Source: Escherichia phage MirsaeidiM_Esher6
Sequence record: PQ585404
Length of the DNA stretch: 22,558 nt
Strand: one strand, 5' to 3'
In this document: piece by piece, positions 1 to 15,864 of the stretch
Layout of the letters: every line of letters starts with the position of its first letter
How positions within the stretch are numbered: position 1 is the first letter of the stretch
The notes under the pieces: model-generated
Told to the model about the DNA's origin: nothing
Databases searched by the model: none
The model's input: only the letters and a program-made list of their open reading frames with translations
Made by a program: the position numbers and the translations under genes

Positions 1-1736
1 CCCAGCTCGTCGTCCGTATCGTGAGTCACCCGGACCCCATTGTCCCAGAACTCAGTGTGGATGGACTCGAAGCCTTTCCGTGGGTTCTCCATCTGTTCCT
101 CCAGCCATTCCTCAGTGACTTCACGTTCGCCTTTGTTGGCATCCTTAGCCATCGACTCAACGAAGAACTGTACACCGATAGCCAGCGCATCAAGTCGGTC
201 ATCGTGTGCCAAGGCTCCACGTTCACGAGAGATACGGGTCATCTGGTAGAAGAGAGAGTAGATAGGATTACGCACACCATCCTTATCAGAGGCTGACTGG
301 TAGTCTTGGACTATAGCAGCAGCGTTAACGATAAGCCGGTGAGACCCCATGATAGGCTCCAGAACGTCACAGATGCGGAGTTCTTTCTGACCCTTACTCT
401 TCACTTCAGTTACAGCCGCAGGATGGATACGGGCCGCTACAGGCTTGAATAGCTCAAGGTACATACCATCACCGAAGTTACCCTCAATGACGTATTCGTT
501 GACCTTCCACTTACGACCAATCTTAGCTAGTGCTTCCAGCGTAGAGTCTTCATAACCACCACGCATACCACCAACTTCCATAGCGAAGATGTAGCCGTTG
601 AGCTGATACAGTACCGAATAGCCAGTTTCATCCTTACCACGACCACTAGGGTCAATGACCAGAATCTTCTGGGTGTACGAACTGAAGGCAGAACCTACAG
701 TCTGATACGTGTGGTACGAGTCACCCATGAGTCCAACGTTAGGAACGTCCTCACGCTTGTTCTGAGGGTTCGGTAACCATTGGTAGACCATTGGGCTAGA
801 CGCTGGGTCTAAGTCTGCTACGATAAGGTCACGGAGCTTCAGAGGGTACTTCTCAGCATCACTCAGGTTAGGGTTAAGCATGAACTGTAGAGCGAAGCCA
901 GCTTTGCCATAGGATAGCTCACGTTCCTTCAGGTCCGTATCATCGAATCGTATCTCATCGGTCGGACGCCAGTAGAAGGACTCAGGGTCCTCTTCAAGCT
1001 CTGCCTGAAGCATAGGAGCCAGACGGTCGCCGTAAGACTGCCAGTCCTTCCTGTCGCGTGGATAACGAGCAGGCCAGATAGTAGTGGTGTACCCACGGCC
1101 TTCCAGCTCACGATACAAGGTCATCTCGTTCTGAGGAGTACCCAGATAGATGATTGTGCCTCCGGGCTTCAGGATAGCATCGAACTCTTTCACAAGCTCT
1201 GACAGACGGTCTCGTGCAGCCTGAGTCGCTGAGTTGTTCGGAACCTCCACGTCATCGGCAATCAGGATGTCAGCACGACTACCAGTCAACTGACCAGTGA
1301 TACCAACGGACTTAACCGAAGGTGAGTGGTCTGGCTTGGCTGGCCCAACGTCGAAGCTGATAACCGCATCTCGCTGACCCTGCTTAGGTTTGAGTTCCCG
1401 AAGCTGAGGCATGAGGTCGATGATTCGCTTGATGAAGATGGAGTTAGCATCGGCTCGTTCCTTTGAGGCCGACACAATCATGAACTTCAAGTCTGGGTTG
1501 TTCCATAGCTTCCAGACAACGAAGGCACACGTAATGAAGGACTTCCCGATACCACGGAACGCCTGTAGGATGAAACGCCTGTTGTCCCCAGCCGATAGTT
1601 TCTTCGCCATGTCAATCTGACATCGAGTCGGGACTGGTAGTGACAGAGCTTTCCACAGGACGAACAGGAAGAACACGAAGTCTGCCTTCATACGGGCAGT
1701 CATTAGCGCCTGACGCGCCACTAAATCTTTACTCAA
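1..1736 (-). CDS. gp19: Terminase large subunit (T7 gp19-like), 3' end truncated by the window edge
   Basis: My own minus-strand translation reads [67 protein letters not shown]... and aligns by eye to T7 gp19 along its length. The frame is open to position 1 (last residues ...HDTDDEL). It is missing from the ORF track because its stop lies outside the window. Start is either TTG at 1736 (SD AAGGAGGTGA 6 nt upstream, overlapping the Rz stop) or ATG at 1703. Confidence 0.88.
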
Positions 1737-2182
1737 TGCGTCACCTCCTTATCTTGCTGCAAGGCTCTCACAGTGTCCTGAAGGGCCTTAATCCACTTGT
1801 CTCCTTTCACTCCGATGGTGATAAGACGTTTAGCATCTCGTTCGTCAAGTTCGGCGTAACCATCAATGACGCATCGACCGTCACTTTGCGTGGTTCCACT
1901 CGTTGGTTTGACTCGGATGCGCAGCCGCTTATTGTCAGACTGAAGGTCAGCAATAATCCTATCAGTGCTGCCTTCCAGCGAGGACATTTCGTCCTGAAAC
2001 CGTTTGGACACTTTGTTGACTTCAGCTTGGACAGCAAGCCTTTTATCTTCCGATGCCTTAAGATTCGAGGTGTATTCTTCATTGATCTTAGCCTCCCACT
2101 TATTGTTAGCGGTGTGGTAGCCACCAGCAAACATCACTGCTGCAAGTAACCACGGAGCCGCTCTCTTTAAAAATTCGAGCAT
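1733..2182 (-). CDS. gp18.5: Rz-like i-spanin (T7 gp18.5-like)
   Basis: 149 aa with an N-terminal hydrophobic anchor ([15 protein letters not shown]) and a charged periplasmic region. ATG start preceded by GGGAGGG. Sits between small and large terminase genes as in T7. Confidence 0.85.
1807..2130 (-). CDS. gp18.7: Rz1-like o-spanin lipoprotein embedded in the +1 frame of Rz (T7 gp18.7-like); 5' boundary uncertain
   Basis: The alternate frame inside Rz encodes ...[26 protein letters not shown]..., with a lipobox-like ISGC after a hydrophobic stretch. No ATG precedes the signal peptide in frame; the track ORF starts at a TTG at 2130. The true start is probably internal and non-canonical. Confidence 0.5.
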   Translation of the reverse strand: MLVATTPLTISGRLRSMKNTPRILRHRKIKGLLSKLKSTKCPNGFRTKCPRWKAALIGLLLTFSLTISGCASESNQRVEPRKVTVDASLMVTPNLTNEMLNVLSPSE

Positions 2183-2283
2183 AGTTGCCCTCCCGGTTTA
2201 TCAGATTTCACGTAGAGTCTCCTCCACTAGTTAGTGTTAACCATAAAGGCCACTACATATAGTAATGACCTTGAGTCTAACAC

Positions 2284-2547
2284 TTATTGAACACCATACC
2301 CGGTGTCATTATCTTCCGTAGCCGAGAGCACCTTATCGTACTCTGCGTTCAGGGACTCCATATCAGCCAGAGTCTTCTCGTCGACAGACACCTTGCTTAG
2401 CACGAAGTTGTGACGAGCCAGTAGCTTCTCAATGGCGTTGTAAAGCTGAGGTGAACGCTTAGTGTCATCCCGCAGGTCTTGCAGCATGAGTCGAGCACGT
2501 TCAGTATCTAGCATCAAGAGGAACTTCTCTAAGTCCATCTGCGTCAT
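2284..2547 (-). CDS. gp18: Terminase small subunit / DNA maturation protein A (T7 gp18-like)
   Basis: 87 aa at the T7 gene 18 position and size. ATG start overlaps the holin stop as ATGA, with SD AGGAGGAGG upstream. Confidence 0.75.
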   Translation of the reverse strand: MTQMDLEKFLLMLDTERARLMLQDLRDDTKRSPQLYNAIEKLLARHNFVLSKVSVDEKTLADMESLNAEYDKVLSATEDNDTGYGVQ

Positions 2548-2741
2548 GTTTTACCACCTCCTCCTTTAATCGTTTTGTAGACTAGCACACCAATCTGGAC
2601 AACGGTGTACGCGATAGCTGCAACGTAGAACCATTCGTTAAGTGTGAGCCCGAAGAAGAACCGACTGGCACCATCAGCCGCAGCGGTCCCGACTATAGGA
2701 GAGGCTTTAAGGACCTCATTCTTGAAGTCTAACTCAATCAT
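2544..2741 (-). CDS. gp17.5: Class II holin (T7 gp17.5-like)
   Basis: 65 aa; central ...FFFGLTLNEWFYVAAIAYTVVQIG... is nearly identical to the T7 holin core. SD GGAGG upstream of ATG. Confidence 0.88.
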   Translation of the reverse strand: MIELDFKNEVLKASPIVGTAAADGASRFFFGLTLNEWFYVAAIAYTVVQIGVLVYKTIKGGGGKT

Positions 2742-2850
2742 AAAACCTCCAGTTTAAAGCGGGTCGTCCGTGACCCAAAGTTGTTACCATACGTTGGTTA
2801 GCGTGTAGTTAGCCTCTACCCCACCAACTTAATGGCAAAGGGTTTGTTTA

Positions 2851-5800
2851 TTACTTCTGTTCAAGAGCAGAAAGTCTGGCTTCGATTCTTTCCAGTTTTC
2901 TTCTCTGATAAGCGGCTTCAGCAAAGAAAATTCCGTCAGGCCGAACACCCCACTCCTCACCCTCTTCGTGAATAACCACCTCGGTGTACACAGGTTCTTC
3001 CGTAGTAGTGACATTACCCTCCTCGTCAGTGTGTTCAATGATTTCATTGTGCGAAAATACCGTATCGGTCATCCGTGGATACTTGTCATAGCACAGAACA
3101 GCATAACGACAATTCGTACTGTTTTCATCCATCAGACCATGTGCAATGAATACATCACGAATTTGCTGAGCAATAACCCCGAAGTGAATACGAGCATCAT
3201 TGCCTTTCAGTTGAACAGCATCTAACCACTGGTACATGATGTAGTGAACGTCACCCCAGGCATCTAGGAAAGCATCATCAAAAACTACCGGCTCTGTTTT
3301 CCTCTCCCCGTTAGAAGTAACAATAGGGTTACTTCCTAGGTATGCAGTGGAGAAACGGTTGCTAGGCCCACCAAGCGCAGTGACGTTATCGTTATAAGGC
3401 TTAACATCAGCAGTCTGGAACAGGTGCTCAGCTCCGTTGTAAACTATCCGCCTTGAGTCGGTGTTATTTGCACCATAAAGCGTAATCTGTGCGCCAGAAG
3501 AAGAACTGGTACTGTCGCCTCCGCAAAATATGGTGCGCTGCCCTGCAGGGTTATCAGTCGGTATAGATTTCCCGATAAACCCATATTCACCTTCCATTAA
3601 AACTTCAGAGCGAATGTTACTACTGGTGCTGGCTCTAATGGTCACATGACCTAAACCCAAATCCCCTGTAAATTCCATTGGCGCAGGAACAGTGCGAATC
3701 CCATTCGTATCAAAAAACACGGGAACAGCTCTGTTAGGTACAGCACCATACCTGAAATCACGGGAAACATGATTGCTTGGGCCAATCTTCATTTTGTAGC
3801 AATACAAATCTGAGGGATGACCATCCGATTTGAATGGGTCCTTCGCTGAGTTATCTCCATATGTCCATGGGTTAAAATGGTCCTCTCCACCAAACATGTA
3901 GTAGATGTAATTATCCTTCACAACTACCGAACCAACACCTACACCTGAGTTAACTATTCCGCCCTGATAAATCTGGTCAGTGATGTTAACCAATTCAATA
4001 TCATCTGCATTCCAATTGTTTACATTCAAGCGTGCATAGAAGGTGCGAGGATAAGATGCCTTGTAACGATCATCTGGTGCACCTGCTTCCCATTCATTTT
4101 CTGCACGTTCTGAACCAAACATAATAAGGTCATCCCCTACTTTAGCAAAAGGTAATGTAGTATGATGAACATTATGTGGAAATCTCAGTGACTCCCAAGT
4201 CTGACCTATGTCTCTACTACGATGCAAAGAGCTACCTAGTCTATCCCCACGAGTACCACGAGTGATAAGATACAATACACCATCATAGTACTTGATGCAC
4301 GGTTCTGATGCATCTGGTTCATACTCAGCTGGTATCTGACGACGAACATAGTTAGCTGGATTGTCGAAAGCATTAGGGAAGTAGAAGAGTCCAACTTCGC
4401 GTGGGGCTACATCGCCTTGATGATAACCCATAACAAAGCCATTGTTATCAATAGTAGCAAAGCTATGCACCTCTGTTACACGAGGGATTAGACCGAGGTC
4501 TGTCTTACGCCATGGAGACTTATGGAAAGACGTACCCATGTGCCAATTCTTTCCAGCGTTATTCAAATCTGAAGTCTGCTGGTTGGGTGTAAGAACCGTG
4601 AAGTTGTCCTTATCTATTACGGTTGCAACAGTCATATCACCGGATACACCTGTTACCGCAGAATTAGAGAAGTTAACAAAATCACCCACGAATAGTCCGT
4701 GGTCTGGTACATGTATTGTTGCATATCGCTGATTTGCAGCTTTAGTGATACCACCAGTAAGATGCAGGCTACGAGACATGGGGCGATCCCACAATGCACA
4801 ATTGGTTAATTCGTTCTTGGCTAAAGTACGTGTTTCAATCATGGCAAACAGACGGTTGCGACATACACCCATGCTCATACAGTGATAGTTCACTGTAGGG
4901 TAATCTGGATGCAGATCAGTTAACCACTCTGGAGTAGACCATGTTTGACCATCATCACCAGACTTAACCCATGATACATGCAGACGACTAACACCATGAC
5001 GATCGCCACCCATGTAAGGTGCATATATCACATTATCATATACGAACGCTTTATCCTGAGGCCACGCATTGTAATAAGGGGTGTCCGTTATTTTGAATAA
5101 CTCCCCCTGAACAAATTCCTCAGAGGCATAATAAAGAGGTTGTCCGGGAATGCGCTCATAAAGGAAACGAGTGTTGATGAAGCGACTAATGTCAGGCAGG
5201 GATGTGACCTTATATGTCTTCCCATTGCCATTAATCTTTTGTCCAACCGGTATGTCGTTTAATGCGCTCGTTAACGCTGCTGTATCATCAGTGACACCAT
5301 CCCCTTTAGCACCCCAACCACGAACATCATTTTCATCAAGCCAGCGTGCTCTATGTAATTCAGGGTAGAGTATTGCCCCTTCCGGGTTTGAAATCTGACT
5401 TCTTAAAGCAGCATCACCAACACTAACCCACGCACCTAATCCAATCCCACCAGAAGTTTCAGGAGTTGAACCAGCAGGAACGTTCTTTGGAAGCGTACCA
5501 TCCCAGCGGTAATAATCACCATCCTCTTCCCATAGCAGGACCTCGCTCCATGTTGTAACGTTGTAGCCTTTCTCGAAGGAGCGACGGGTCATATAGCCAA
5601 TTAGACCAGCTTCCCTGATACTCTCAGCGATTCGGCGTGCTTCGTCCTCGCTATCCTTAGCGTTGCCAGCAGAGCTACCAGCAGCATCGGCATATTCCTT
5701 CGCTAAGTCAACCGTTTGGTCTCGACCTTCTTCTGCAATATGGATAGCCTGAAGCTCTGAATTGGTCAGGTCACTAGCTGTCAACACTGAGCCATTCCTG

Positions 5801-6045
5801 AAGTCTACCACTAAGTCAGTTCCAGTCTGACGGTGAATACGAACGATGTCGAAACCTGATTGGTCAACCAACATCTCAATCATCGTTGGATTAAGGAATC
5901 GGTAATCTCGACCAACTTCCAGTACACGGTTCAGGGTAGGGTTAGAGCTATTCACCAGCGTAACAACAACAAACGTTCTGGCTAGGTAATCGAACTCAAT
6001 CCTGTACTGAGTGTTCCCTGAAGGGAATTGTGTAATCGTGGACAT
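2851..6045 (-). CDS. gp17: Tail fiber / tailspike with endosialidase (endo-N-acetylneuraminidase) catalytic region and C-terminal intramolecular chaperone domain
   Basis: 1064 aa. The N-terminal ~150 aa (MSTITQFPSGNTQYRIEFDYLARTFVVVTLVNSSN...) is a T7 gp17-like tail-attachment domain. Length 1064 and Ser911/Lys916 (...VTS-NGERK..., by my count) match what I recall of K1F endoNF. ATG start with SD AGGAGG. Confidence 0.85.
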   Translation of the reverse strand: MSTITQFPSGNTQYRIEFDYLARTFVVVTLVNSSNPTLNRVLEVGRDYRFLNPTMIEMLVDQSGFDIVRIHRQTGTDLVVDFRNGSVLTASDLTNSELQAIHIAEEGRDQTVDLAKEYADAAGSSAGNAKDSEDEARRIAESIREAGLIGYMTRRSFEKGYNVTTWSEVLLWEEDGDYYRWDGTLPKNVPAGSTPETSGGIGLGAWVSVGDAALRSQISNPEGAILYPELHRARWLDENDVRGWGAKGDGVTDDTAALTSALNDIPVGQKINGNGKTYKVTSLPDISRFINTRFLYERIPGQPLYYASEEFVQGELFKITDTPYYNAWPQDKAFVYDNVIYAPYMGGDRHGVSRLHVSWVKSGDDGQTWSTPEWLTDLHPDYPTVNYHCMSMGVCRNRLFAMIETRTLAKNELTNCALWDRPMSRSLHLTGGITKAANQRYATIHVPDHGLFVGDFVNFSNSAVTGVSGDMTVATVIDKDNFTVLTPNQQTSDLNNAGKNWHMGTSFHKSPWRKTDLGLIPRVTEVHSFATIDNNGFVMGYHQGDVAPREVGLFYFPNAFDNPANYVRRQIPAEYEPDASEPCIKYYDGVLYLITRGTRGDRLGSSLHRSRDIGQTWESLRFPHNVHHTTLPFAKVGDDLIMFGSERAENEWEAGAPDDRYKASYPRTFYARLNVNNWNADDIELVNITDQIYQGGIVNSGVGVGSVVVKDNYIYYMFGGEDHFNPWTYGDNSAKDPFKSDGHPSDLYCYKMKIGPSNHVSRDFRYGAVPNRAVPVFFDTNGIRTVPAPMEFTGDLGLGHVTIRASTSSNIRSEVLMEGEYGFIGKSIPTDNPAGQRTIFCGGDSTSSSSGAQITLYGANNTDSRRIVYNGAEHLFQTADVKPYNDNVTALGGPSNRFSTAYLGSNPIVTSNGERKTEPVVFDDAFLDAWGDVHYIMYQWLDAVQLKGNDARIHFGVIAQQIRDVFIAHGLMDENSTNCRYAVLCYDKYPRMTDTVFSHNEIIEHTDEEGNVTTTEEPVYTEVVIHEEGEEWGVRPDGIFFAEAAYQRRKLERIEARLSALEQK

Positions 6046-6092
6046 TATGCCTCCTGTTATGAATTAAAAGGAGACCTATGGTAGCGCCTCCA

Positions 6093-6115
6093 GTTTCCTA
6101 TAGTGATAGTTTAGT
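6093..6115 (-). promoter_or_regulatory. Phage RNAP promoter upstream of gene 17 (phi17-like)
   Basis: Minus strand reads ACTAAACTATCACTATA|GGAAAC, one of five copies of the same 17-mer followed by G. Overlaps the gene 16 stop codon. Confidence 0.8.
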
Positions 6116-9100
6116 CCTTGATGTGGATGCCCTGCTCCTCAAACGTTCCAAGCAACAGCTTCTGGGTAATGGGGTCGTTCGGAACCAGTTCACGGAACGT
6201 GTTATACATCCCGGTCATGTAGTCTCGCTCGTTGACACGGGTATCAGCCTTGAGGTAGCCAGCCAAGTTGTAAGCAGAAACGCCAACGTTAGCAGCATAT
6301 CCGAAAGCTGGAACCTGCTCCAAGAAGTTACCAACAACATTCATCACAGGGTCACTTGTAGCCGCACCAAACGTGATGGCACGTTCAGGCTTCTCTGTAG
6401 GCGAACGAGGAAGGATAGACGAGCGGAGTAACTTAGTGTCCTCATACCCAGCGATGCCACCCAGAATGTTGGCGACCCCAAGAGGTCCACCCAAGTGGGA
6501 GCTACGGGATAGAGCCGCATAGCCAATCATCGTCGGGTTCAGGGCTTGCTTCAGGTACTCACGGTCACGACCGTCCTGCATAGCGTAAGCCTTGATGTGC
6601 GCCTGAGCCATGTAGTACATCCCAGCCAGACCCATAGAGATCACAGTGGACAGTGCAGCATCCATAGCTCGGTTGTTCTTGGTGGCGTTGTAGAAGGTAC
6701 GCATGGTTCGACCGTTGATAGACTTGATAACGTAGTTCTTAAACTGCAAGACAGTCTTCGCTATCGGACCATAAGCCTTGGCGTCCATGTTGCTCAGCTT
6801 GTGGGGACGGAGCAGGGTCTCATCAGCGATGGTGTCACCCATACGCCAGAGGTCCATAGCCCTTGGGTCCTGACTGAACGCCTTCTTATCCTTGATGGTG
6901 TACTTCCCGTCTGGACCACGCGTCACTGACTCACGGATGAGGGACTTAATGCCCTTCCACTGCTCGTCAGAGATACCAGCGGTCTTCAGCCAGCGGTCAT
7001 CGAACTTACGCTTACTACCAGTCAGGCTATGCTCCACGATGTCAGACAGGAAGCCTTGACGTCCAGCATCTAACAGGTAGTTGGTCGTACCGTTGAGGAC
7101 TTTAGTGAACGGAGAGCGTACTGCAAGTTCGCCAGTGTAATACTTGGCAGTCCCCAGAGCTGTAGCTGTACCACGACCGAGGTCACTGTAAGATCGCAGA
7201 CGGTCAATGACATCCTGTTTAGACGGACGGATTGAGTCATCCAGTTCCTTACCGAAGATAACATTGTGCAGGTCCTTAATCTCTGAGGCCCCAACCTTCT
7301 TGTTACGGAAGGCTAGGTCACGGAAAATTGGGACTCCATGCAGCATTGCACGAACGTTGCCACGAGCCAGCATACCACCAATCTCCGTTAAGTTCTGAAC
7401 ACCCATGTAGGCATTCTTAGCGAAGAACGATAGGTCTGTCATTGTGCGCATCACGGTAGCGAAGGCTGCATCATCAGCACCATCACGTCGAGCACGACCA
7501 GTTAGAATCTTCAAGGTGTCACGTAAGGTAGATACTTCACCTTTCAACTTACCGTCATCCCCAGCCTTGTTCATCATGGTCTCAACCAAGTCCTTCATGT
7601 CCTTCGTGGTTTTGCCTGTACCAGCCATGATAGCAATATCGCCATTAATTCGACGGTTGTAGGCCGGGACAATCTTGTCCATGTCCCACTCACGCAGGTT
7701 GTTGACACTGAAGGTCTGACCATTAGGTAGGACGATTGACATATCGCTATCGAACAGGTTACGAGCCTCAAGGAAGCTGTTGTTCTCCAGACCCACCAGA
7801 CCATTGATGTTCTCTTCCATTACGGATGAACGCTCGAACTGCTCGGTGTGAGAGATACCATAAGCCTTATCGTTGGCGTACTTATCGACCGCAGCCGCAA
7901 GTCCTTCTGGAGTCAACGTAGGATCAGCCTCTAAGAGTGCCTCGTCCACACGTTTCTTGACCTCAGGTCGAGACGCATAGCTGGTCAACCATGACTTCTT
8001 GATGGCCTCCTGTAGTGCCTCTGGACTCCCAAGCTCCTTGATGTATAGCTCCTTCATCTGGTTGCTATACACATGCGGGACGTAGGTTCCCTTGAAGCGG
8101 CTGCCCGGAAAGATAGACTGAGCGTCTGGCCGACCAAACATAGCTGGGTTCTCCATCATCTCACGCTTGGCGTCAAACTGGTTCTTCAGTAGGTCATAGA
8201 CTTTAAGTTCTCCCGGAGTAAGTTCAGCCTTCAGGTTTCCGCTGCCATCTTCGATAGCCATAGACACGCGCTGGTAGATGTCCTGACGGAATGCTCCAGA
8301 GTCTCGCCAGAATGCTGTCTGGAAGTACGGGTCCTTCAGTGCCTCAGTAACCGCATCATCGATGTCGTTGTAGAACCGATGGTCCACAGCACGCAGTCTC
8401 TCGAATACGTCTGACGCAGTGGTCCCGATTTTACCTGAGGCCCCTGACTGCATACCAGTCGGTGAACGCACTAAGTCAGCAGCTACTCCACGAATCTCAG
8501 GGTTCTCAGACCGAAGCAGCTTCAGGCCAATCTCGGTAAGTCCACCAAGGTTCACACCAGCAGCGGCACGTTCTGGCTCAATCACTTCGTCAAAGACCTT
8601 ACGTGTCTTAGGGTTCAGAGGGTTCTCACCAATCAGGATTGAACCATCTTCCAGTCGTACACTACCCTGCTCATTCGGAACGTCAGCGAACTTAACTCCT
8701 TGATGACTAAAGGTCTGCTCACCTTCCTGAATAGGGAGACGAGACAGGTCCTGACCATCAATGTTACGAGCGGTCTCACGAGCTTCCAGACGTGTAGCTG
8801 GGCCAGCGAACTCATTAGTGTTGCGACCTAAGGCTCTGCCTAACCCATCAGCGATAGCAGTCATACCACCACCGAAGAGAGCACCACCAAGGATAGCTTC
8901 AGCCACATGAGTATCGCCACCAGCCACTGAGGTACGGGCCATCTCGGACACACCAGCAAGTGCTCCAGATTGAGCAGCCACGGTGAACATCTTGTTGACC
9001 AGCTTCGCACCTTTGCCAACCTGTCCAGCGATAGGAACGTAGGTCAGCGGGTCTACACCAGCACCAATCACACCAGCTGCTAACTGAGCACCAGTCCCAG

Positions 9101-10007
9101 CCTTGGCCTTCTCTTGGTCCAACTTCTGGTTCTCAAGCGCCAAGTTAATAAGCTCGGTCAGGTTCTGAGGAGAGCCACCAGTAATGACACCGTAATACTG
9201 AGGGAGAACTCCAGCGTTACGAATCTGGTCCAGCTCCTCACGAGACCACTTATGGTTGTTCCAGCGGGTAGGGTTGAACACATCGCCAATGACATCAAGT
9301 GAGTCCTCGGTCTGACCAGCGCGGATAGCCACGCCGACCATAGAGTTCTTCACTTCAGCTTCTGTAGCCGAGCCGAAACCGAACCACGTAGAGCGGCCCT
9401 CTCGTTCCTGCATGGTCTCGCCAGTAGACTTATAGAACATCTCACTGAACGATTCGTTGGGAGCTTCAGGTGCTTGACCCTCAATGTTTAGACCAGCAGC
9501 GGTCGGAAGGTTCTCACCCAGAGCTACTTTAGGTTTAGCCTTGAGTCCTTCCGTGAGTGCGTCAAATACGTTAGCGCTTACTGGTGGAGTCTTTGGGGTT
9601 ATGCCTCCCGCACCACTTAAGGCACGAGAGACGCCAGTCTTGTAGACCTCATGGTCATACCGGGAACCAGTCTCGTGGTAGCCGATAGCCTCAGACAGAG
9701 AGGCGAGGACATCAGGGTTCGTCAAGTCGATACTTTGGGTCGCTGGAATGCCAGTAGCAGCCACAACCGAGTCTATGTAAGACTGAGTGTCGTTCTCGCT
9801 GGGGGGCGCCCATCGGTTGATAATCTTCTCGATTGAGTCATAGCCTTGGCGACCGTAGCTTTGAAGGTTTTTCGCTAAGGCTCGGACCCCAGATTCAGGA
9901 CTGTCGAAGATGACGAATGCACCATCGTCGCCTATAGCACCTTCCCACTGGTCTTTGGACTTACGGAGGTTACCGGGGTTTGCGTTCCTTACACCACGTG
10001 TTGCCAT
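6111..10007 (-). CDS. gp16: Internal virion (core/ejection) protein D, T7 gp16-like
   Basis: 1298 aa; from about residue 130 onward it aligns by eye with T7 gp16 (e.g. GGSPQNLTELINLA, GKTTKDMKD, FDSDMSIVLPNGQTFSVNNLREWDM). ATG with SD AAGGAG. The N-terminal ~130 aa does not resemble the T7 SLT domain. Confidence 0.88.
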   Translation of the reverse strand: MATRGVRNANPGNLRKSKDQWEGAIGDDGAFVIFDSPESGVRALAKNLQSYGRQGYDSIEKIINRWAPPSENDTQSYIDSVVAATGIPATQSIDLTNPDVLASLSEAIGYHETGSRYDHEVYKTGVSRALSGAGGITPKTPPVSANVFDALTEGLKAKPKVALGENLPTAAGLNIEGQAPEAPNESFSEMFYKSTGETMQEREGRSTWFGFGSATEAEVKNSMVGVAIRAGQTEDSLDVIGDVFNPTRWNNHKWSREELDQIRNAGVLPQYYGVITGGSPQNLTELINLALENQKLDQEKAKAGTGAQLAAGVIGAGVDPLTYVPIAGQVGKGAKLVNKMFTVAAQSGALAGVSEMARTSVAGGDTHVAEAILGGALFGGGMTAIADGLGRALGRNTNEFAGPATRLEARETARNIDGQDLSRLPIQEGEQTFSHQGVKFADVPNEQGSVRLEDGSILIGENPLNPKTRKVFDEVIEPERAAAGVNLGGLTEIGLKLLRSENPEIRGVAADLVRSPTGMQSGASGKIGTTASDVFERLRAVDHRFYNDIDDAVTEALKDPYFQTAFWRDSGAFRQDIYQRVSMAIEDGSGNLKAELTPGELKVYDLLKNQFDAKREMMENPAMFGRPDAQSIFPGSRFKGTYVPHVYSNQMKELYIKELGSPEALQEAIKKSWLTSYASRPEVKKRVDEALLEADPTLTPEGLAAAVDKYANDKAYGISHTEQFERSSVMEENINGLVGLENNSFLEARNLFDSDMSIVLPNGQTFSVNNLREWDMDKIVPAYNRRINGDIAIMAGTGKTTKDMKDLVETMMNKAGDDGKLKGEVSTLRDTLKILTGRARRDGADDAAFATVMRTMTDLSFFAKNAYMGVQNLTEIGGMLARGNVRAMLHGVPIFRDLAFRNKKVGASEIKDLHNVIFGKELDDSIRPSKQDVIDRLRSYSDLGRGTATALGTAKYYTGELAVRSPFTKVLNGTTNYLLDAGRQGFLSDIVEHSLTGSKRKFDDRWLKTAGISDEQWKGIKSLIRESVTRGPDGKYTIKDKKAFSQDPRAMDLWRMGDTIADETLLRPHKLSNMDAKAYGPIAKTVLQFKNYVIKSINGRTMRTFYNATKNNRAMDAALSTVISMGLAGMYYMAQAHIKAYAMQDGRDREYLKQALNPTMIGYAALSRSSHLGGPLGVANILGGIAGYEDTKLLRSSILPRSPTEKPERAITFGAATSDPVMNVVGNFLEQVPAFGYAANVGVSAYNLAGYLKADTRVNERDYMTGMYNTFRELVPNDPITQKLLLGTFEEQGIHIKD

Positions 10008-10012
10008 TATTA

Positions 10013-12295
10013 TTACTCCTTACTGATTAAGGTGTTTGCGATACCCTCCAGTGAGACGTCATTGTACATCCCACCGCGCTTCTCGATGTTGGCCTCTCGG
10101 TCAGCTCGACGTTTGTCACCAGCAGCTTTAGTCCCGACGATACGCGCTCGCTTGTTAGCGTCACGTTCTGCCTGAGCATATGCGGCATCTTGTGCCTTCT
10201 GCTGTTGTTCGCGGTAGAGTTTACCTACAAGTTCTTTATCGTAGCGAATACGAATAGTCCCTGTAGCGTCTTGGAGGAAGATAGAGCCGTTCTGTTCAAC
10301 AACGGACAACTGAGAGTTAACTACCCAAGGGTTGGCCTTAATGAGCTGCTTACGAGCGGTGTCTATAATGTCTCGACCAACCTGCCACGACTCTGGGTTA
10401 TCCCCGACCATAAGCTGGTGCTTGGACGCCATGCCGATGGACTTACCGTCAGAACCTTCAGACTGGAACGTTACGGTGTTCTCATTCAGCCAGCGTTGAG
10501 TCTGCTGAGTTGCAGCGTCAGCGTTACCTGTACGATAGTACCATGAGTCCCAGACCTTACGAGCACTTGAGTCTAGAGACGTAGGAAGACGCGAAAGGTC
10601 CTTATTCCGAGAGTCGTTCTTCAACTCCTGCCACGCCCTGTCTGACTCCATGCGCATCTCACGGCTTTGACTTGCAGCTTGCTTATCAGCTTCAATCATC
10701 GTCTGAGGGTCCAGACCCATCTTATCCATCTGGTCGAACGTAGAGAACAACTGAGCTTGGTCAGGATACAGAGCAGCGAAACTTGAAGGGTCCTGAGTGT
10801 AGGCACGACGAAGAGATTCGAAGCGTTGCATCTTGTCTGGGTCGTACTGCCCACGGATGACCGCAGCTTGCCACTCACCAGCAGCGTCCTGAGTAAGCGT
10901 TTGGAAGGCATTACGGAACGGACCGTTGTTAGTGTCAGCTCTTAATAATGCAACCTTCTGTGCGTCCTTAGCAGCCTCAGGGATGTCCATCTGGTCAATC
11001 TGCTGTAGCTTAGCAGACGCATAGTTGTTCATGTCTGAACGCTTGAACTCTCCTGTGGCTACAGAGACCGGAAGGTCCTCATAGTTGGTGGACACGTTGT
11101 CTCCAGCCAGACGTCGCTGATACACTTGGTCAATGACCAGTTGCTTGTTCTGGGTCTGGATTAACTTCGTGTTCTCCTTCGCCTGTTCAGCAGACTTACG
11201 CTTTACCGCTTCCAGTAAGCTGGCTTCGGCATTAATAAGCATCTGACGCTGAGGCGTGAGTTCTTCACCCGGTTGAAGCAGGTTGTTCTGCTCCTTGAGT
11301 TTTTGAATCTGGGCCAGACCGATGGTTGGGTCATCCTGAAGAATCGCAGACTGAACGCCTAACGACAAGTCTTCCTGATACTTAGCCACCAGCTTGTACT
11401 CAGTTCCTTGTGCCTCAACAATAGCAGCGTTGAAGACATCAGGTCCTACAATCTCTTCGACTGTAGCATCCACGCCGTTAAGGGTGATTCGCTCGCCTCG
11501 TACTTGCTGTAGGAAGTTTGAGCCGCCTGACTTCTGGATTGCGTCACGGACCGTCTGGGTAACGACCTCCCGCGCTCGCTGGTCCGAGGGGATAGCAGCA
11601 GTAGTCAGTCCATCACGAAGGTAGGCCATGAATGTCTTGCCAGACTCAGGTGAACGCATCAGGTCGCCATCGTTCAGGAATGAGTTCATCTCAATACGAG
11701 TGTTCAACATTGCTGTCTCTTCAGACTGCTTGCTGAAATACTTATTGAAAGACCCATAGATAGCGATGTTGCGGTCTGTGATGTTATCGTTGAACCCACG
11801 CTGGAAGAACTCGTCTGTAGGGTTAATACCCGCCTCTTCAGCATAGGACTTAGCGGCGTCCTGAAGTCGCTGGTGGCGATACTCTTCCATGTCCTGACGT
11901 GTACGGAACTCACCGTTCTGAATCTTAACGTTAATCTCGTCGTCTACAGCAAAGGCAGCATTACGACCAGTCTTGACTCGAAGTGCTTCCATAGCGTAAG
12001 GGTCGTCCTGATACAGCAGTGTGCCGTTCTGGATAGCCTCACGTCTTTGTTGAGGTGTCAGCTTACGGATAATCTCGTTAGACCGCTCGTCGGCCCGTGT
12101 CTTCTCCTCGTCCTTGAACTGCTTGTACAATCCAGTCCCAGACTCAACGAAGTTGGTTAACGCCCGAGCCAGACCTGAGTCACCAGTTGGAGCCTGAACG
12201 CTGGCTGCTTGATAGTTGACGGCGATAGTTTTACCCGGCGCTCTGCCACGACCCATAGTCCGATTAGCCAGAGCTGATTCAATATTACTAGCCAT
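10013..12295 (-). CDS. gp15: Internal virion (core) protein C, T7 gp15-like
   Basis: 760 aa (T7 gp15 is 747 aa) at the syntenic position. ATG with SD GAGGAGG. Confidence 0.82.
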   Translation of the reverse strand: MASNIESALANRTMGRGRAPGKTIAVNYQAASVQAPTGDSGLARALTNFVESGTGLYKQFKDEEKTRADERSNEIIRKLTPQQRREAIQNGTLLYQDDPYAMEALRVKTGRNAAFAVDDEINVKIQNGEFRTRQDMEEYRHQRLQDAAKSYAEEAGINPTDEFFQRGFNDNITDRNIAIYGSFNKYFSKQSEETAMLNTRIEMNSFLNDGDLMRSPESGKTFMAYLRDGLTTAAIPSDQRAREVVTQTVRDAIQKSGGSNFLQQVRGERITLNGVDATVEEIVGPDVFNAAIVEAQGTEYKLVAKYQEDLSLGVQSAILQDDPTIGLAQIQKLKEQNNLLQPGEELTPQRQMLINAEASLLEAVKRKSAEQAKENTKLIQTQNKQLVIDQVYQRRLAGDNVSTNYEDLPVSVATGEFKRSDMNNYASAKLQQIDQMDIPEAAKDAQKVALLRADTNNGPFRNAFQTLTQDAAGEWQAAVIRGQYDPDKMQRFESLRRAYTQDPSSFAALYPDQAQLFSTFDQMDKMGLDPQTMIEADKQAASQSREMRMESDRAWQELKNDSRNKDLSRLPTSLDSSARKVWDSWYYRTGNADAATQQTQRWLNENTVTFQSEGSDGKSIGMASKHQLMVGDNPESWQVGRDIIDTARKQLIKANPWVVNSQLSVVEQNGSIFLQDATGTIRIRYDKELVGKLYREQQQKAQDAAYAQAERDANKRARIVGTKAAGDKRRADREANIEKRGGMYNDVSLEGIANTLISKE

Positions 12296-12306
12296 TAGTC
12301 CTCCTC

Positions 12307-12873
12307 TTAGCTATGACCTGTAGGTGTGCCTTTAGCAGCACTAATCGGTGCAGCACCATCACCAGAGCTGGACGCTCCAGAGATTGACTTACCAGCAGCG
12401 TACCCCTGCATCCCGGCGCTTGCAACATTAAGTGCATGAGCCAGTGGGCTGGTCTTGATGATTTTACCTTGACCGTGGATAGCAGACTTGGTGTTCTCAA
12501 TGTTGGCGATACGGTTCCCGAAGATAGCCGCATAGTCACGGTTGTAGCTTTCGGTAATCCCTGCTCGCTCCTTGACTGTATCTCCTGCGACCTGACGTTC
12601 AATCCTGTCCATAGAGTTACCTTCCAGACCGGACTCAGCCACCGCAGCTCGGACCATACCCTGATTGCGGATACCGTTGAGCGTGGTCTCTGTCAGTTCA
12701 GCCATCTGCTGCTCCTTCAGGTCTCGCTCCTGCATCTTCAGGTTGGCATCAGAGTAATTCATTTGTTTAATCATCTCCTGAGCCTGACGGTTCTGAGCGT
12801 CAATTGCTGCACCTTCGGCCTTGGCTTGTTGAGACGCGGACATAGTGGCCCCTGCTACAGCCATAACGCCCAT
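12307..12873 (-). CDS. gp14: Internal virion protein B, T7 gp14-like
   Basis: 188 aa, Ala/Gln-rich; MSASQQAKAEGAAIDAQNRQAQEMIKQ parallels the T7 gp14 N-terminus. ATG at 12873 has no obvious SD, so the start is slightly uncertain. Confidence 0.78.
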   Translation of the reverse strand: MGVMAVAGATMSASQQAKAEGAAIDAQNRQAQEMIKQMNYSDANLKMQERDLKEQQMAELTETTLNGIRNQGMVRAAVAESGLEGNSMDRIERQVAGDTVKERAGITESYNRDYAAIFGNRIANIENTKSAIHGQGKIIKTSPLAHALNVASAGMQGYAAGKSISGASSSGDGAAPISAAKGTPTGHS

Positions 12874-12900
12874 GCCGATAGAAATTGGTTCGCAAATTTT

Positions 12901-12975
12901 CTAATCCCCCTTCCGGCTATCAGCCAGATACTTAGCAGCCTTCTCAATCTTGCAGACTGTGCAGACCTTCGTCAT
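12901..12975 (-). CDS. Small ORF (24 aa, CxxC) translationally coupled to gene 13
   Basis: Absent from the ORF track (below its size cutoff). ATG overlaps the gene 13 TGA as ATGA, with SD AAGGAGG 5 nt upstream. Translation MTKVCTVCKIEKAAKYLADSRKGD, stop TAG. Confidence 0.4.
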   Translation of the reverse strand: MTKVCTVCKIEKAAKYLADSRKGD

Positions 12976-13430
12976 ACGTCCTCCTTGGAGATTGTGAATA
13001 ATTGAAAACGCTCACCAGTGACAGGACTCTCGGTCCAATCATCATGGAATTTAGCGCCAAGCAACTTCAAGAATTTAATGTGAGACTTATTGTCTGACCA
13101 CACGTAGTTCCAGATGGTCCCGTATTGGTCTAACATTAAGTCCCTGTACTCAGAGATACGCTTTATGAACTCCCGCTTCTCTTTAGGTCTCAGCTTATAG
13201 ACAAGACCTGAAGTCAAGAACCATACGTTATCCCCTTGGTTTCCACCATATGCAAACACTTCGCCTACACCGTTCGTTAAAACCACAGATGACGGAGATA
13301 AATGCTTAAGCAGTCTTTCAGAGAGACCCACGGTTGACCCGTAGTTTGCTTTGCATTCATTAACATCATCTGCCGAAAGATGCCGCATAAAGTAGTGGAC
13401 ATCTGGTTCCGTAGCCTTGCGAATATACAT
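12972..13430 (-). CDS. gp13: Internal virion protein A, T7 gp13-like
   Basis: 152 aa directly downstream of a phage promoter, between genes 12 and 14 as in T7. ATG with SD AGGAG. Confidence 0.72.
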   Translation of the reverse strand: MYIRKATEPDVHYFMRHLSADDVNECKANYGSTVGLSERLLKHLSPSSVVLTNGVGEVFAYGGNQGDNVWFLTSGLVYKLRPKEKREFIKRISEYRDLMLDQYGTIWNYVWSDNKSHIKFLKLLGAKFHDDWTESPVTGERFQLFTISKEDV

Positions 13431-13459
13431 AAAGTCTCCTTATAACCTTAAGGGACTAT

Positions 13460-13482
13460 AGTCCCTATAGTGATAGTTAAGG
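13460..13482 (-). promoter_or_regulatory. Phage RNAP promoter upstream of gene 13 (phi13-like)
   Basis: Minus strand CCTTAACTATCACTATA|GGGACT. The initial transcribed sequence GGGACUAUAGUCCC is a perfect hairpin. Confidence 0.75.
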
Positions 13483-13506
13483 TAAATCTATAGGCCCTTC
13501 AATAAG

Positions 13507-15864
13507 TTAGACGGAACGAGCTTTCTTAGCGTATGACGCCTCCCAGCCACATCCAACGATTGACACTGGGGTAGGATAGTCGGACTCTAAGGTTAGACTC
13601 GTGGTTAATGCGTTACCATTCATAGCGAAGCGATACTGCCCGTCACCAATGTTAGTAGTCCCTATGGTTTGCTGACCAAGGGTGTACCCATTAAAGGTGT
13701 TAACGAACTCTCGCTCACCGTTTCTGACAATGAGTCTCAGAGCGCCAGTGTCCTTGTAGTTGACCCAAGCCCGACGAAGCTGTAGACGACCAGTGTCTTC
13801 AGACTGAGTGCCTCTATCATCTTCAATCTTAATCAGGAACCGTGAGAACTTGTAGGACATCATATAGGACCGTCCGATGAACACTGTACGTCCTGACCAA
13901 TCGCCGTTGAGGGTAATCACAGTAGAGATACTGGTTAATTCCCCAAGGTCCAAATAAGCACCCTGACTGTCAATCAGATAGTACCGACCGGGAGACGGAG
14001 CGCTACCGCCATAAGCAGCACCAATGTCAACCGTAGTCTTATATGTGTCAGCATTAAACGAGCCAATTGGGATGACCATAGACACCTTGGAGTCAACGTG
14101 GAGTCTATACGGCTCTGACGGAAAGTCAGTTGCCTCCTTGATGAACTTAAGGTGCTCAATGTCTACCCCTCCTTGATGCTGACGAACGATGAACATGGTA
14201 GAGCCAATAGAAGCAGACGCCAGAATCTTATCATCTTTAGGGAACTCCCAGTGTGACCAAGAGGCTTGAAGCTGTACGCCGTCCTTAAACAAGAACTTGT
14301 AGATGTAGATACGGTTGTATGCACCTGTAGAGTTGACGCAGATGTAGTTCTCAGTCCCTGTACCTTGAATATCAAACACCCCGTTAGGGATGTAGGACAA
14401 TACGTGACCGGTTGTATCATCAGCATCCTTCACATCAGACACATCAGCTACAGCGAAGTATCGCTTAATGCTGGTGAATGACCCACGAGGAGCTGAGAAG
14501 AAGACTGAGCGTCCTACAGCGAACGGTCTGGCATTGTCGCCTAAGGCAAACTCTGAGCCTACATCAAGCTGGATAGACTTCGAGGTAAGGACCCCAGAGC
14601 TTGTCATCACGAACTGAACTTCATCCGACCAAAGTAGTAGCTGCTCGCTAAACGGAACGGCATACTTAAGGATTGAGATTCGAGGGTGGCTTACAGCTAC
14701 ATCAATAGGGTCATCATCACTCAGTGTCGCCACACTCTTAGGGAAGAACGCAAAGTAGCTGGCTGAACGGCTCATGATTACGTTCTCGCCTGACAAGAAC
14801 CCAAGCCTATTCCTGTAGAAGAACACATCGTTAATCGTAGCATCCACGAAGCTAGGCATAGGGTTTGTGTCATCATTCCCAGCACCACGCTTAGACCAGT
14901 CCAGAGCCTTGAACTCAAAGGAGCCATCAGTTTGTCGTACCAGAGCGTGTGGCATTGTGGTGTTATTGAACCCAGTGACAACTCCAGGCTCCACTGTCTC
15001 CTTCCACGTCTTAGTGTTGGAGTCATACATCACGTAGTATTCGTCGGCGCTACTGTTTGTCTCACCTTGAATCTTAATGATATACCCATTAGGAGCGGCA
15101 AGAGGTAGTTTAGAGATTGTCTGCACAGTATCTAGGACTGGGCTTATTAGCTGGTTAGCGTAGCCATCCTCCGTCTCTACTGAGTTAATATCGGTCCCAG
15201 AAGGAGCTGTGATTAGCAGGAATCCAGACCCAAGGTCAAACGTGAAGGTAGGGTAGGCAGTGACAAGAAGGTCTCTCAGAGCTGCACCAATGGCTTGAGC
15301 GTCCACCTTAGGCGGGTCATTCTCGGCATCGTTACCTGCTGGTAGCTTATGCGAGACCTTAACGCCACCGTTGATTCCCACCTTAAGGGTTCGACCATAC
15401 TGTCCACCACGCAGGTTAATTAAAGCTCGTGCTTTGCGGTTATAACCAGAGTGTGACTTCTCGCTTCCACCTTTGACGACAACCTTACGGTTAACGACGA
15501 ACGTATAGTCTGCCACGGTAACGACACGGATGTCATCTCGTGGGTTTGAGGACTTAACGTAGTCTACCTCACCTGACACTGAGTATTGGTTACCACTCAA
15601 GTCAACTACCTGAATGTCGGACCCATTGAACACGATGTAATACTGCTCATGCTCGTCACGGTTAATCAGGTGGAACTTAGGGTTGCTCCCAACGTCGATG
15701 TTAAGACGTCGCTTGAAGACTGTAGGTGGACGCTTCTGGAGTCCATCACTCTCGGATGACCAGCAGTTAACCTGTGCCTCTCCTTGGTCTGAGAACCTCA
15801 GGATGTCAGGCTGTTGGCTAATGCCACCCTTAAGATTTTTTATGCTTTGCGTAATAAGAGGCAT
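13507..15864 (-). CDS. gp12: Tail tubular protein B (T7 gp12-like)
   Basis: 785 aa (T7 gp12 is 794 aa) at the syntenic position after gene 11. ATG with SD GGGAGGG; start overlaps the gene 11 stop. Confidence 0.85.
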   Translation of the reverse strand: MPLITQSIKNLKGGISQQPDILRFSDQGEAQVNCWSSESDGLQKRPPTVFKRRLNIDVGSNPKFHLINRDEHEQYYIVFNGSDIQVVDLSGNQYSVSGEVDYVKSSNPRDDIRVVTVADYTFVVNRKVVVKGGSEKSHSGYNRKARALINLRGGQYGRTLKVGINGGVKVSHKLPAGNDAENDPPKVDAQAIGAALRDLLVTAYPTFTFDLGSGFLLITAPSGTDINSVETEDGYANQLISPVLDTVQTISKLPLAAPNGYIIKIQGETNSSADEYYVMYDSNTKTWKETVEPGVVTGFNNTTMPHALVRQTDGSFEFKALDWSKRGAGNDDTNPMPSFVDATINDVFFYRNRLGFLSGENVIMSRSASYFAFFPKSVATLSDDDPIDVAVSHPRISILKYAVPFSEQLLLWSDEVQFVMTSSGVLTSKSIQLDVGSEFALGDNARPFAVGRSVFFSAPRGSFTSIKRYFAVADVSDVKDADDTTGHVLSYIPNGVFDIQGTGTENYICVNSTGAYNRIYIYKFLFKDGVQLQASWSHWEFPKDDKILASASIGSTMFIVRQHQGGVDIEHLKFIKEATDFPSEPYRLHVDSKVSMVIPIGSFNADTYKTTVDIGAAYGGSAPSPGRYYLIDSQGAYLDLGELTSISTVITLNGDWSGRTVFIGRSYMMSYKFSRFLIKIEDDRGTQSEDTGRLQLRRAWVNYKDTGALRLIVRNGEREFVNTFNGYTLGQQTIGTTNIGDGQYRFAMNGNALTTSLTLESDYPTPVSIVGCGWEASYAKKARSV

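Follow-up and report, generated by a model that had tools for sequence, protein, structure and literature searches.

Homology and synonymous composition of a low-GC endosialidase cassette in gene 17 of a K1F-like phage

Gene 17 of phage K1F is the type example in the literature of horizontal transfer of a tailspike module (PMC6872550). Its product, endoNF (DQ111067, AM084414), has a solved catalytic part and C-terminal domain (PDB 1V0E, 3GVL and 3GW6). In K1-5 and K1E (Vectrevirus), the endosialidase gp47 does not carry a T7-type adaptor of its own and is attached via a separate adaptor protein (PMC6872550). The gene 17 that we analysed in Escherichia phage MirsaeidiM_Esher6 has the same length as that of K1F (3195 nt, 1064 aa), the same order of domains and the same genomic place between genes 16 and 17.5, and the solved parts align with its product end to end. 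The two genes are 97.3% identical in nucleotide sequence, and the differences of about 3% occur in patches, the identity being 88% in codons 551-600 and 92-94% in codons 751-900. The horizontal origin of the gene 17 cassette is already known. Because both the gene and its origin are textbook matter, our finding adds little, and the locus is an ordinary, already known one with a modest compositional nuance. A search of the literature, which did not take in the K1F genome paper (PMC1317022), yielded no paper reporting that K1F gene 17 is anomalous in GC or codon usage, and the matches on 'lower GC content' concerned other matters.

The window, which is the whole stretch of 22,558 nt that was analysed, covers the right half of the genome of a K1F-like Kayfunavirus (T7 family), whose genes here lie on the minus strand. 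Around the cassette, genes 19, 18.5, 18, 17.5, 16 and 15 are in Kayfunavirus synteny, in the order annotated in L001 and L002. The nearest deposited genome is that of phage MirsaeidiM_Esher7, with 98.2% identity over 8 kb and 99.3% in gene 17. The features of the locus are collected in Table 1. The N-terminus of T7 gp17 (7boz) aligns to aa 6-116 of the gene 17 product, and the CBA120 tailspike structures (PMC3184105) align to aa 155-265. The catalytic part was recognized by PF12217 (E = 1.7e-220), PF12195 (E = 6e-48) and PF12218 (E = 7e-37), and the alignments of 1V0E and 3GVL span aa 245-910 and score 1525-1527 bits. The alignment of 3GW6 to aa 790-1064 agrees with a stalk followed by a chaperone domain.

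Table 1. Positions of gene 17, its parts, its borders and the backbone comparator in the window
Feature	Position	Strand	Basis
Gene 17, endosialidase tailspike precursor, 1064 aa	2851..6045	-	ORF and translation; seven Pfam domains
T7-type tail adaptor, codons 1-150 (genus backbone)	5596..6045	-	Pfam Phage_T7_tail PF03906, aa 10-115, E = 1.2e-15
Tail_spike_N domain and linker, codons ~151-275, with 5' junction zone 5220-5425	5220..5595	-	Pfam PF18668, aa 156-211
Endosialidase N-terminal extension, catalytic beta-propeller and inserted beta-barrel, codons 246-754	3784..5310	-	Pfam PF12218, PF12217, PF12195
Stalk (End_tail_spike) domain, codons 757-910	3316..3777	-	Pfam PF12219, aa 757-910
C-terminal intramolecular chaperone domain, codons 911-1064 and stop codon	2851..3315	-	Pfam Peptidase_S74 PF13884, aa 916-971
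Cassette 3' junction, 11-32 nt beyond the gene 17 stop codon	2819..2840	.	End of sister homology / start of foreign-carrier homology
Gene 16 (internal virion protein D), backbone comparator	6111..10007	-	ORF; 92-96% identity to non-K1 Kayfunaviruses
Low-GC3 tract, codons 175-1062	2860..5521	-	Unsupervised GC3 scan

Gene 17 is a chimera, in which a cassette of about 2.6 kb follows the adaptor and linker in the same reading frame. This cassette, from about 2831 to 5220-5425, would encode an endosialidase degrading the K1 capsule together with its C-terminal intramolecular chaperone. Judging from the near-identity to endoNF, the adaptor would attach the trimer to the tail, the propeller would cleave alpha-2,8-polysialic acid, and the chaperone would drive folding of the trimer and then be cleaved off. 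Both the polysialic acid cleavage and the autocleavage of the chaperone domain are predicted from the 97% nucleotide identity to the K1F gene and the near-full-length alignment to solved structures.

The original prediction, made from the letters alone, was that the catalytic and chaperone modules had been acquired horizontally, and homology supports this independently of composition. Eight non-K1 Kayfunaviruses are 90-97% identical to the window on either side of the cassette (94-97% in the adaptor): the first match stops at 2819-2830, and the second starts at 5272-5425 and runs to 8000. On the 5' side of the cassette their homology ends at 5272, 5280, 5287, 5399, 5401, 5411, 5413 and 5425. 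Between these borders, the sequence is unrelated in seven of the eight sisters, whose gene 17 products have 676-913 aa; the record of the eighth, ST16, is cut in this stretch. The intervening stretch is present in four unrelated carriers: the siphovirus IME207 (2840-5522, 93.6%), the N4-like phage UE-S5b (2821-5328, 82.3%), the Ackermannviridae phage YX22 (2840-5481, 81.1%) and K1-5 (3314-5145, 82.5%). On the 3' side, the foreign homology thus starts at 2821 (UE-S5b) or 2840 (IME207 and YX22). On the 5' side, the high identity to IME207 (at least 95%) stops near 5220. The 5' junction zone lies at codons ~207-275, within and after the Tail_spike_N linker, rather than where the T7-type adaptor stops. 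Part of the linker (5387-5524) is 72-80% identical to the N-termini of tailspikes from 561 phage records. The cassette is exchanged among unrelated phages. We suggest that this happens by recombination, which would occur on the 5' side in this widely conserved linker and on the 3' side just beyond the stop codon, and that it would switch the host range. Promoter and terminator consensus hits in 2500-6300 were no commoner than in shuffled sequence, with none at the junctions. A search of E. coli chromosomes for a chromosomal donor found none, but just the endosialidases of CUS-3-type prophages (72% over 330 nt).

The cassette itself is a mosaic of segments with differing relatedness. This was seen in pairwise blastn profiles; a MAFFT alignment across the carriers misaligned codons ~175-275 and was dropped. 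The tail spike of IME207 (Shuimuvirus) shares the cassette, beginning at codon ~275 and ending 11 nt beyond the stop codon, with 95-100% identity in most 120-nt windows, and has the same GC3 (0.39) as gene 17 here, but it differs in its N-terminal anchor, its long non-contractile tail and its backbone GC3 of 0.48. The propeller and barrel are most like those of K1-5 (87-97% over codons ~316-715), in which GC3 is likewise under that of the backbone (0.32 vs 0.42). However, the stalk of K1-5 is only 59-72% identical, and blastn gave no match to K1-5 in the chaperone domain. The reverse holds for UE-S5b (Gamaleyavirus) and YX22, whose stalk and chaperone are 81-99% identical (81-95% in the stalk) and whose homology stops at the same point beyond the stop codon, whereas their propellers are just 62-82% identical. 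In UE-S5b, the GC3 of the module equals that of its backbone (0.39 vs 0.37). In the chaperone domain, the nucleotide identity to UE-S5b, YX22 and IME207 is 92-99%. Among the K1F-like phages, too, the variation within the cassette is patchy.

The tail-spike body had been described as lower in GC than its neighbours, which held for the complete sequence: the cassette (2840-5522) has 44.8% GC, compared to 50.6% in 1-2830 and 50.8% in 6046-22558. The 44 lines of 60 nt in the cassette averaged 0.448 +/- 0.040, and the 321 lines outside gene 17 averaged 0.508 +/- 0.053 (Mann-Whitney p = 4e-12). In the complete genome of L001, the closest relative, the cassette is the lowest-GC stretch of 2.7 kb (0.445 vs 0.503 +/- 0.013). 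The two lines cited for the claim were read exactly (43.3% in 3841-3900 and 56.7% in 7441-7500), but they overstated the contrast, at 14 points instead of the true 6, as gene 16 averages 52.7% GC and reaches 56.7% or more in just 22% of its 60-nt lines. A scan of raw GC returned a broader interval (1986-6115; LLR 18.9 vs a null maximum of 9.8). The excess breadth comes from genes 18.5-17.5 and the first 100 codons of gene 17, where amino-acid content and spacers raise the share of AT. We therefore used a GC3 scan of all 7038 codons of the window to place the edges, and it returned the tract of Table 1, with a GC3 of 0.373 inside and 0.542 outside (LLR 44.7; null values averaged 9.1 and reached 15.1 at most). 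A step near the adaptor/catalytic junction is thus present. The 2-LLR support runs from 5464 to 5998 at the upper edge, and so takes in the border of 5600 originally drawn, and from 2658 to 3136 at the lower edge. The module boundary was therefore correctly spotted from the raw sequence. The homology breakpoints bracket the tract, and its upper edge is upstream of the zone where homology breaks off, at a distance of 40-300 nt. Codons 175-211, which are common to all Kayfunaviruses, are already low in GC3, so the edge of composition and the latest breakpoints do not exactly coincide.

The GC deficit of the cassette lies wholly at synonymous third codon positions. GC3 in codons 175-1064 is 0.374, compared to 0.559 in gene 16 (Fisher p = 1.6e-17), 0.543-0.559 in the flanks and 0.543 in the pooled backbone. 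The gap in GC1+2 is slight (0.486 vs 0.511 in gene 16 and 0.49-0.51 in the backbone). Gene 17 is 4.2 SD under the per-gene mean of GC3 in the full sister genome. By segment, GC3 is 0.254 in codons 175-245, 0.352 in 313-715, 0.415 in 716-910 and 0.422 in 911-1064. The adaptor end had been thought to look like the rest of the genome, which was true in part. Its GC3 does not differ significantly from that of gene 16 (0.489 in codons 1-174, p = 0.088; p = 0.005 vs the cassette), but it is only intermediate (0.46-0.49), and the GC of this part is 0.485, falling to 46% in codons 1-100 with a GC1+2 of 0.445. The fibre gene of T7, also gene 17, is no outlier, with a GC3 of 0.487.

In both GC3 and codon usage the cassette is atypical of its resident genome, as a compositional island would be. 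In the 'amelioration' model of Lawrence and Ochman, horizontally acquired DNA is compositionally atypical and drifts toward the composition of the recipient. Our cassette shares with this model its atypical composition, its sharp tract, its presence in unrelated genomes and its absence from sisters. It differs in that no drift toward the recipient was seen and in that backbones differing widely in GC3 carry modules of this composition. In whole endosialidase genes, GC3 is 0.39 in IME207 (backbone 0.48), 0.32 in K1-5 (0.42), 0.39 in UE-S5b (0.37) and 0.41 in YX22 (0.52). Among catalytic modules, those of CUS-3-like prophages have 0.35-0.36 (backbone 0.45-0.51), those of Sashavirus 0.37 (0.35-0.36) and that of L026 0.375 (0.60). 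These backbone figures derive from a crude ORF picker. Endosialidase modules are thus at 0.32-0.38 on backbones of 0.35-0.60, except in one group of carriers, the K1H-like, whose endosialidases have 0.47-0.48 on a backbone of 0.57; some tracking of the backbone therefore occurs. Low GC3 is also found in six of seven other Kayfunavirus cassettes (0.33-0.44; the exception is Penshu1 with 0.565), in three further tailspikes of YX22 (0.32-0.35) and in two K5 lyases (0.36-0.37). Low GC is no clean fingerprint of a donor, since it is common to most other tailspike cassettes as well.

The polarised third-position changes in eight K1F-like phages bear on the same point. In gene 16, there were 147 W->S and 141 S->W changes, which imply an equilibrium GC3 of 0.56. 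In the cassette, there were 79 and 68, respectively, implying 0.41, and the rates of gene 16 were rejected for it (W->S fraction 0.537 observed vs 0.685 expected, p = 2.4e-4). With clustered variation removed, p was 0.004, and with the strictest filter, which has lower power, it was 0.41. Across the filters, the implied equilibrium was 0.36-0.47 in the cassette and 0.56-0.60 in gene 16. Accordingly, no drift of the cassette toward the backbone GC3 was seen in these eight phages. The variation in the cassette is patchy, and recombination has probably brought in part of it; the counts may therefore reflect the wider pool and not mutation in place.

Because GC3 travels with the module and does not drift toward the backbone in K1F-like genomes, we think that the dip of this swapped chimeric gene very probably represents the standing composition of a shared mobile pool of tailspike genes, and not the fading fingerprint of one recent donor. 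The synonymous deficit moves together with the module, and endosialidases and most other enterobacterial tailspike cassettes are at about 0.32-0.44 on any backbone. The low GC3 may be kept either by reservoir lineages of low GC or by selection on synonymous sites. Dips of GC in receptor-binding genes should thus not be read naively as recent low-GC imports, as the deficit in this phage group is purely synonymous, common to tailspike cassettes on widely varied backbones and without amelioration.

A recent import from a single donor of lower GC, K1-5-like or Gamaleyavirus-like, with too little time to drift to the Kayfunavirus composition, seems to us rather unlikely. The codon usage of the cassette does suit the backbones of K1-5 (-1.59 bits/codon) and UE-S5b (-1.60) best and its own backbone (-1.72) worst, the backbones of UE-S5b and Sashavirus match the GC3 of the module, and the identity of 93.6% to IME207, with 96-99% in the chaperone domain across families, indicates that recent transfers happen. 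However, modules with only 65-67% amino-acid identity retain a GC3 of 0.35-0.38 on backbones of 0.45-0.60, the changes in the cassette are balanced when about 2:1 would be expected under the rates of gene 16, and a GC3 just as low is seen in unrelated tailspike cassettes.

That tailspike bodies are by their nature under selection at synonymous sites, which would keep GC3 low in any genome, is improbable to about the same degree; A/T-ending, slower codons could, for example, aid the co-translational folding and trimerisation of beta-propeller and beta-helix proteins. Such selection would agree with the steadiness of GC3 at 0.32-0.44 over many carriers and several unrelated tailspike folds, and with an implied equilibrium in the cassette below that in gene 16 of the same genome. 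The step also falls inside one gene, so transcript level is no explanation. However, the Penshu1 cassette and the K1H-type modules function at higher GC3, the T7 fibre gene is not low, and a reservoir of low-GC phages explains the pattern equally well. A broader claim, that the enzymatic cassettes of enterobacterial phage tailspikes are at a low GC3 equilibrium of their own (~0.32-0.44), actively maintained on any backbone by synonymous selection or a cassette-specific substitution regime, is possible but doubtful. If it were true, a GC dip in a receptor-binding gene would signal a tailspike module instead of a recent import and would provide no clock for transfer. If it were general and selected, it would bear on codon design in host-range engineering by tailspike swaps.

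It is highly improbable that the dip is unrelated to transfer and simply follows from the amino-acid composition, or from poor codon adaptation of a gene 17 expressed at a lower level. Low-GC spots driven by amino acids do exist in the window (gene 13 and codons 1-100 of gene 17), but the partition between GC1+2 and GC3 and the step between the two parts of gene 17 rule this out; moreover, the low-copy gp16 has a high GC3 and T7 gene 17 is no outlier. A chance pick of one AT-rich and one GC-rich line has a negligible probability and is ruled out by the line statistics, the scan LLRs far beyond those of shuffled nulls and the minimum in the sister genome, although the two lines do exaggerate the contrast and 300-nt windows of gene 16 over 7351-7800 have just 48% GC. 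Elsewhere in the window, the low GC of gene 13 is driven by its amino-acid composition, with a GC1+2 of 0.41 and a GC3 of 0.50.

The body of gene 17, the endosialidase tailspike gene, is poorer in GC than its neighbouring genes, as the original prediction held. Its distal cassette (2840-5522) has 44.8% GC, compared to 50.6% on its left side and 50.8% beyond gene 17 on the right, and at third codon positions (GC3) its codons 175-1064 have 0.374, compared to 0.559 in gene 16 (Fisher p = 1.6e-17). The sampled lines behind that claim were read exactly (43.3% and 56.7%), but as a measure of the contrast they were extreme picks; the mean of gene 16 is 52.7% and that of the whole window 50.0%. When all 60-nt lines were used, the values were 0.448 in the cassette and 0.508 outside gene 17. 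Across the closest relative's complete genome, no 2.7-kb stretch is lower in GC than the cassette (0.445 vs 0.503 +/- 0.013). A raw-GC interval scan picked 1986-6115 (LLR 18.9 vs a shuffled maximum of 9.8), a significant and blurry result; other causes make the small neighbouring genes, the spacers and gene 17 codons 1-100 rich in AT. Other low-GC stretches (0.41-0.47) occur at 12900-13650, 17551-18000, 21451-21900 and 1951-2400. Gene 13 (12972-13430; GC 0.44) owes its low GC to amino-acid content, because its GC1+2 is low (0.41) and its GC3 normal (0.50). The stretches 17551-18000 and 21451-21900 overlap the gene 9/10 and gene 6/6.5 spacers, and 1951-2400 lies mostly within genes 18.5 and 18.

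The GC deficit of the cassette sits entirely at third codon positions. GC1+2 is 0.486, compared to 0.511 in gene 16, which excludes amino-acid composition as the cause. A GC3 scan of the 7038 codons in the whole window picked 2860-5521, that is, gene 17 codons 175-1062, with an LLR of 44.7 (null mean 9.1, null maximum 15.1); this and the comparison of 60-nt lines (Mann-Whitney p = 4e-12) exclude chance. The upper edge of the tract has a 2-LLR support of 5464-5998. Taken whole, gene 17 is 4.2 SD under the per-gene GC3 mean of the sister genome, and its lowest GC3 (0.254) is in codons 175-245. The adaptor end, supposed to resemble the rest of the genome, is instead intermediate: GC3 is 0.489 in codons 1-174 (p = 0.088 vs gene 16, p = 0.005 vs cassette) and 0.460 in codons 1-150 (p = 0.047 vs the pooled backbone, 0.543). 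Because GC3 changes within a single gene, and because gp16 has a high GC3 despite its low copy number, expression level is excluded as a cause. The fibre gene of T7 is no outlier (GC3 0.487).

The labels of genes 17 and 16 were correct. All long ORFs of the window are on the minus strand and the genes run leftward, so that gene 17 runs from its adaptor end at 6045 down to a 3' end at 2851. Gene 17 is 99.3% identical to that of Escherichia phage MirsaeidiM_Esher7 and 97.3% to that of phage K1F, annotated as endo-N-acetylneuraminidase (endoNF). Two solved endoNF structures, 1V0E and 3GVL, align with aa 245-910; that of the C-terminal domain, 3GW6, aligns with aa 790-1064. The flanking gene order (19, 18.5, 18, 17.5, 17, 16, 15 and onward) matches that of Kayfunavirus.

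Gene 17 and its domains
Feature	Position	Strand	Basis
Gene 17	window 2851-6045	-	ORF, 1064 aa, seven Pfam domains
Phage_T7_tail	residues 10-115		Pfam
Tail_spike_N	residues 156-211		Pfam
End_N_terminal	residues 246-312		Pfam
End_beta_propel	residues 313-754		Pfam
End_beta_barrel (inserted)	residues 424-506		Pfam
End_tail_spike	residues 757-910		Pfam
Peptidase_S74	residues 916-971		Pfam

Horizontal acquisition of the catalytic and chaperone modules was supported, and this follows from the homology pattern, independently of composition. In local blastn of window 1-8000 against the fetched genomes, eight non-K1 Kayfunaviruses matched (90-97%) between position 1 and 2819-2830, and the match resumed at 5272, 5280, 5287, 5399, 5401, 5411, 5413 or 5425; between those borders, each of the seven whose gene 17 is complete has an unrelated tail-spike body (676-913 aa). 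The stretch absent from these sisters was found in four unrelated phages (IME207, UE-S5b, YX22 and K1-5), and an IMG/VR scan added CUS-3-like prophages, Sashavirus and K1H-like siphoviruses and one unplaced 54%-GC contig. Among E. coli chromosomes, only CUS-3-type endosialidases were found. The gene is well known and its modular exchange is already a textbook example.

The 3' border lies at 2819-2840, 11-32 nt beyond the stop codon, and the 5' borders are scattered over 5220-5425 (codons ~207-275), within and just after the Tail_spike_N domain. Tailspike N-termini with 72-80% identity to the segment 5387-5524 occur in 561 phage records, many genomes having more than one, and this common segment could plausibly be where homologous recombination takes place. 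A 2011 paper (PMC3184105) reported that K1F aa 156-264 are homologous to CBA120 tailspikes. By composition, the ML edge (5521) is somewhat upstream of the 5' junction zone, and therefore the linker common to all Kayfunaviruses is already tailspike-like in composition.

Judged by its identities, the cassette too is a mosaic. Propeller and barrel (codons ~316-715) are 87-97% identical to K1-5 and 62-82% to UE-S5b/YX22; the corresponding values are 59-72% and 81-95% in the stalk, and in the chaperone domain there is no blastn match to K1-5 and 92-99% identity to UE-S5b/YX22. IME207 is mostly 95-100% identical in propeller, barrel and stalk and 95-98% in the chaperone domain, its high identity extending from about codon 275 to the gene end. 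Because the pattern differs by segment, the histories of the catalytic and chaperone parts are partly separate. GC3 loosely parallels the mosaic (propeller 0.352, stalk and chaperone 0.42, p = 0.07). Four unrelated phage groups share the chaperone-domain DNA (2821-3300, compared with genomes L005, L006 and L003) at 92-99% identity, and in two of them the adjoining propeller is just 62-82% identical, which suggests that the 3' chaperone segment alone spread very recently or underwent gene conversion. Several non-K1 Kayfunaviruses retain, at 96-97% identity, the terminal ~214 nt of the endosialidase gene, which encode part of the chaperone domain (codons ~994-1064), with window 2851-3064 corresponding to 5001-5214 of vB_EcoP-101120B2. 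This piece adjoins the downstream side of their own, different tail-spike gene and is annotated as a 55-aa 'tail fiber protein'; it was also matched (first 234 nt of a 2831-3313 query) in 101120B1-2, PM129, PM137 and AN17P1. It resembles a relic left behind when a K1F-like ancestor had its cassette replaced.

Carriers of the endosialidase; GC3 refers to the whole tail-spike gene for some carriers and to the catalytic module for others
Carrier	Group	Window match	Identity	Endosialidase GC3	Backbone GC3
K1F-like				0.37-0.39	0.55-0.59
IME207	siphovirus	2840-5522	93.6% nt	0.38-0.39	0.47-0.48
UE-S5b	N4-like Gamaleyavirus	2821-5328	82.3% nt	0.39	0.37
YX22	Ackermannviridae	2840-5481	81.1% nt	0.41	0.52
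K1-5 (GC3: K1-5/K1E-like)	Vectrevirus	3314-5145	82.5% nt	0.32-0.38	0.40-0.43
CUS-3-like	prophages		65% aa	0.35-0.36	0.45-0.51
Sashavirus			67% aa	0.37	0.35-0.36
L026	contig		67% aa	0.375	0.60
K1H-like			52% aa	0.47-0.48	0.57

If the low GC3 reflected recent import from a low-GC donor, module GC3 should vary by carrier and drift toward each backbone. This was not seen: endosialidase GC3 is 0.32-0.41 on backbones of 0.35-0.60, K1H-like modules being the only higher ones among the carriers compared. Most other tailspike cassettes are equally low, including six of seven from other Kayfunaviruses (0.33-0.44; the exception is Penshu1, 0.565), three further tailspikes of YX22 (0.32-0.35) and two K5 lyases (0.36-0.37). 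The largest module-to-backbone contrast seen was in L026 (IMGVR_UViG_3300011706_000037), a 44-kb viral contig with a backbone GC of 0.54 and faint similarity to Klebsiella phages.

In eight K1F-like phages we polarised the changes at third codon positions, using IME207 as the cassette outgroup. The cassette had 79 AT-to-GC and 68 GC-to-AT changes (implied equilibrium GC3 0.41) and gene 16 had 147 and 141 (0.56), though cassette variation is patchy and may be partly imported, so that its counts may describe a wider pool. The AT-to-GC share in the cassette was 53.7%, compared to 68.5% expected under gene-16 rates (p = 2.4e-4); without clustered variation p was 0.004, and power was lost only under the strictest filter. 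Cassette codon usage best fits the K1-5 and UE-S5b backbones and fits its own backbone worst. In sum, the deficit is confined to synonymous sites, shared across the pool and not ameliorating. Two mechanisms that may maintain it remain: cassettes may be repeatedly redrawn from a low-GC reservoir of carrier lineages, or selection on synonymous sites may be inherent in tailspike bodies. What composition adds is only a nuance, and a broad survey is needed before it counts as a separate finding.

A K1F-type gene 17 (96.9% identity) also occurs in PV615262.1, 'Acinetobacter phage vB_Aba_01KA', whose A. baumannii host label seems doubtful given a K1-capsule-specific tailspike. Between genes 18, 18.5 and 19, some relatives have additional genes for HNH or putative homing endonucleases (2444-3556 in comparison genome L019, 3454-3891 in vB_EcoP-101120B2); the window lacks such genes at ~1733-2284, where genes 19 and 18.5 overlap directly. 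Gene 16 (6111-10007) shows a 9-nt in-frame length polymorphism among relatives, being 3897 nt in the window, Esher7, Esher2 and PhiNW-B1, 3888 nt in K1F, 216Ecol046PP, phiYIO1-1, LNA3 and most non-K1 relatives, and 3891 nt in Penshu1.
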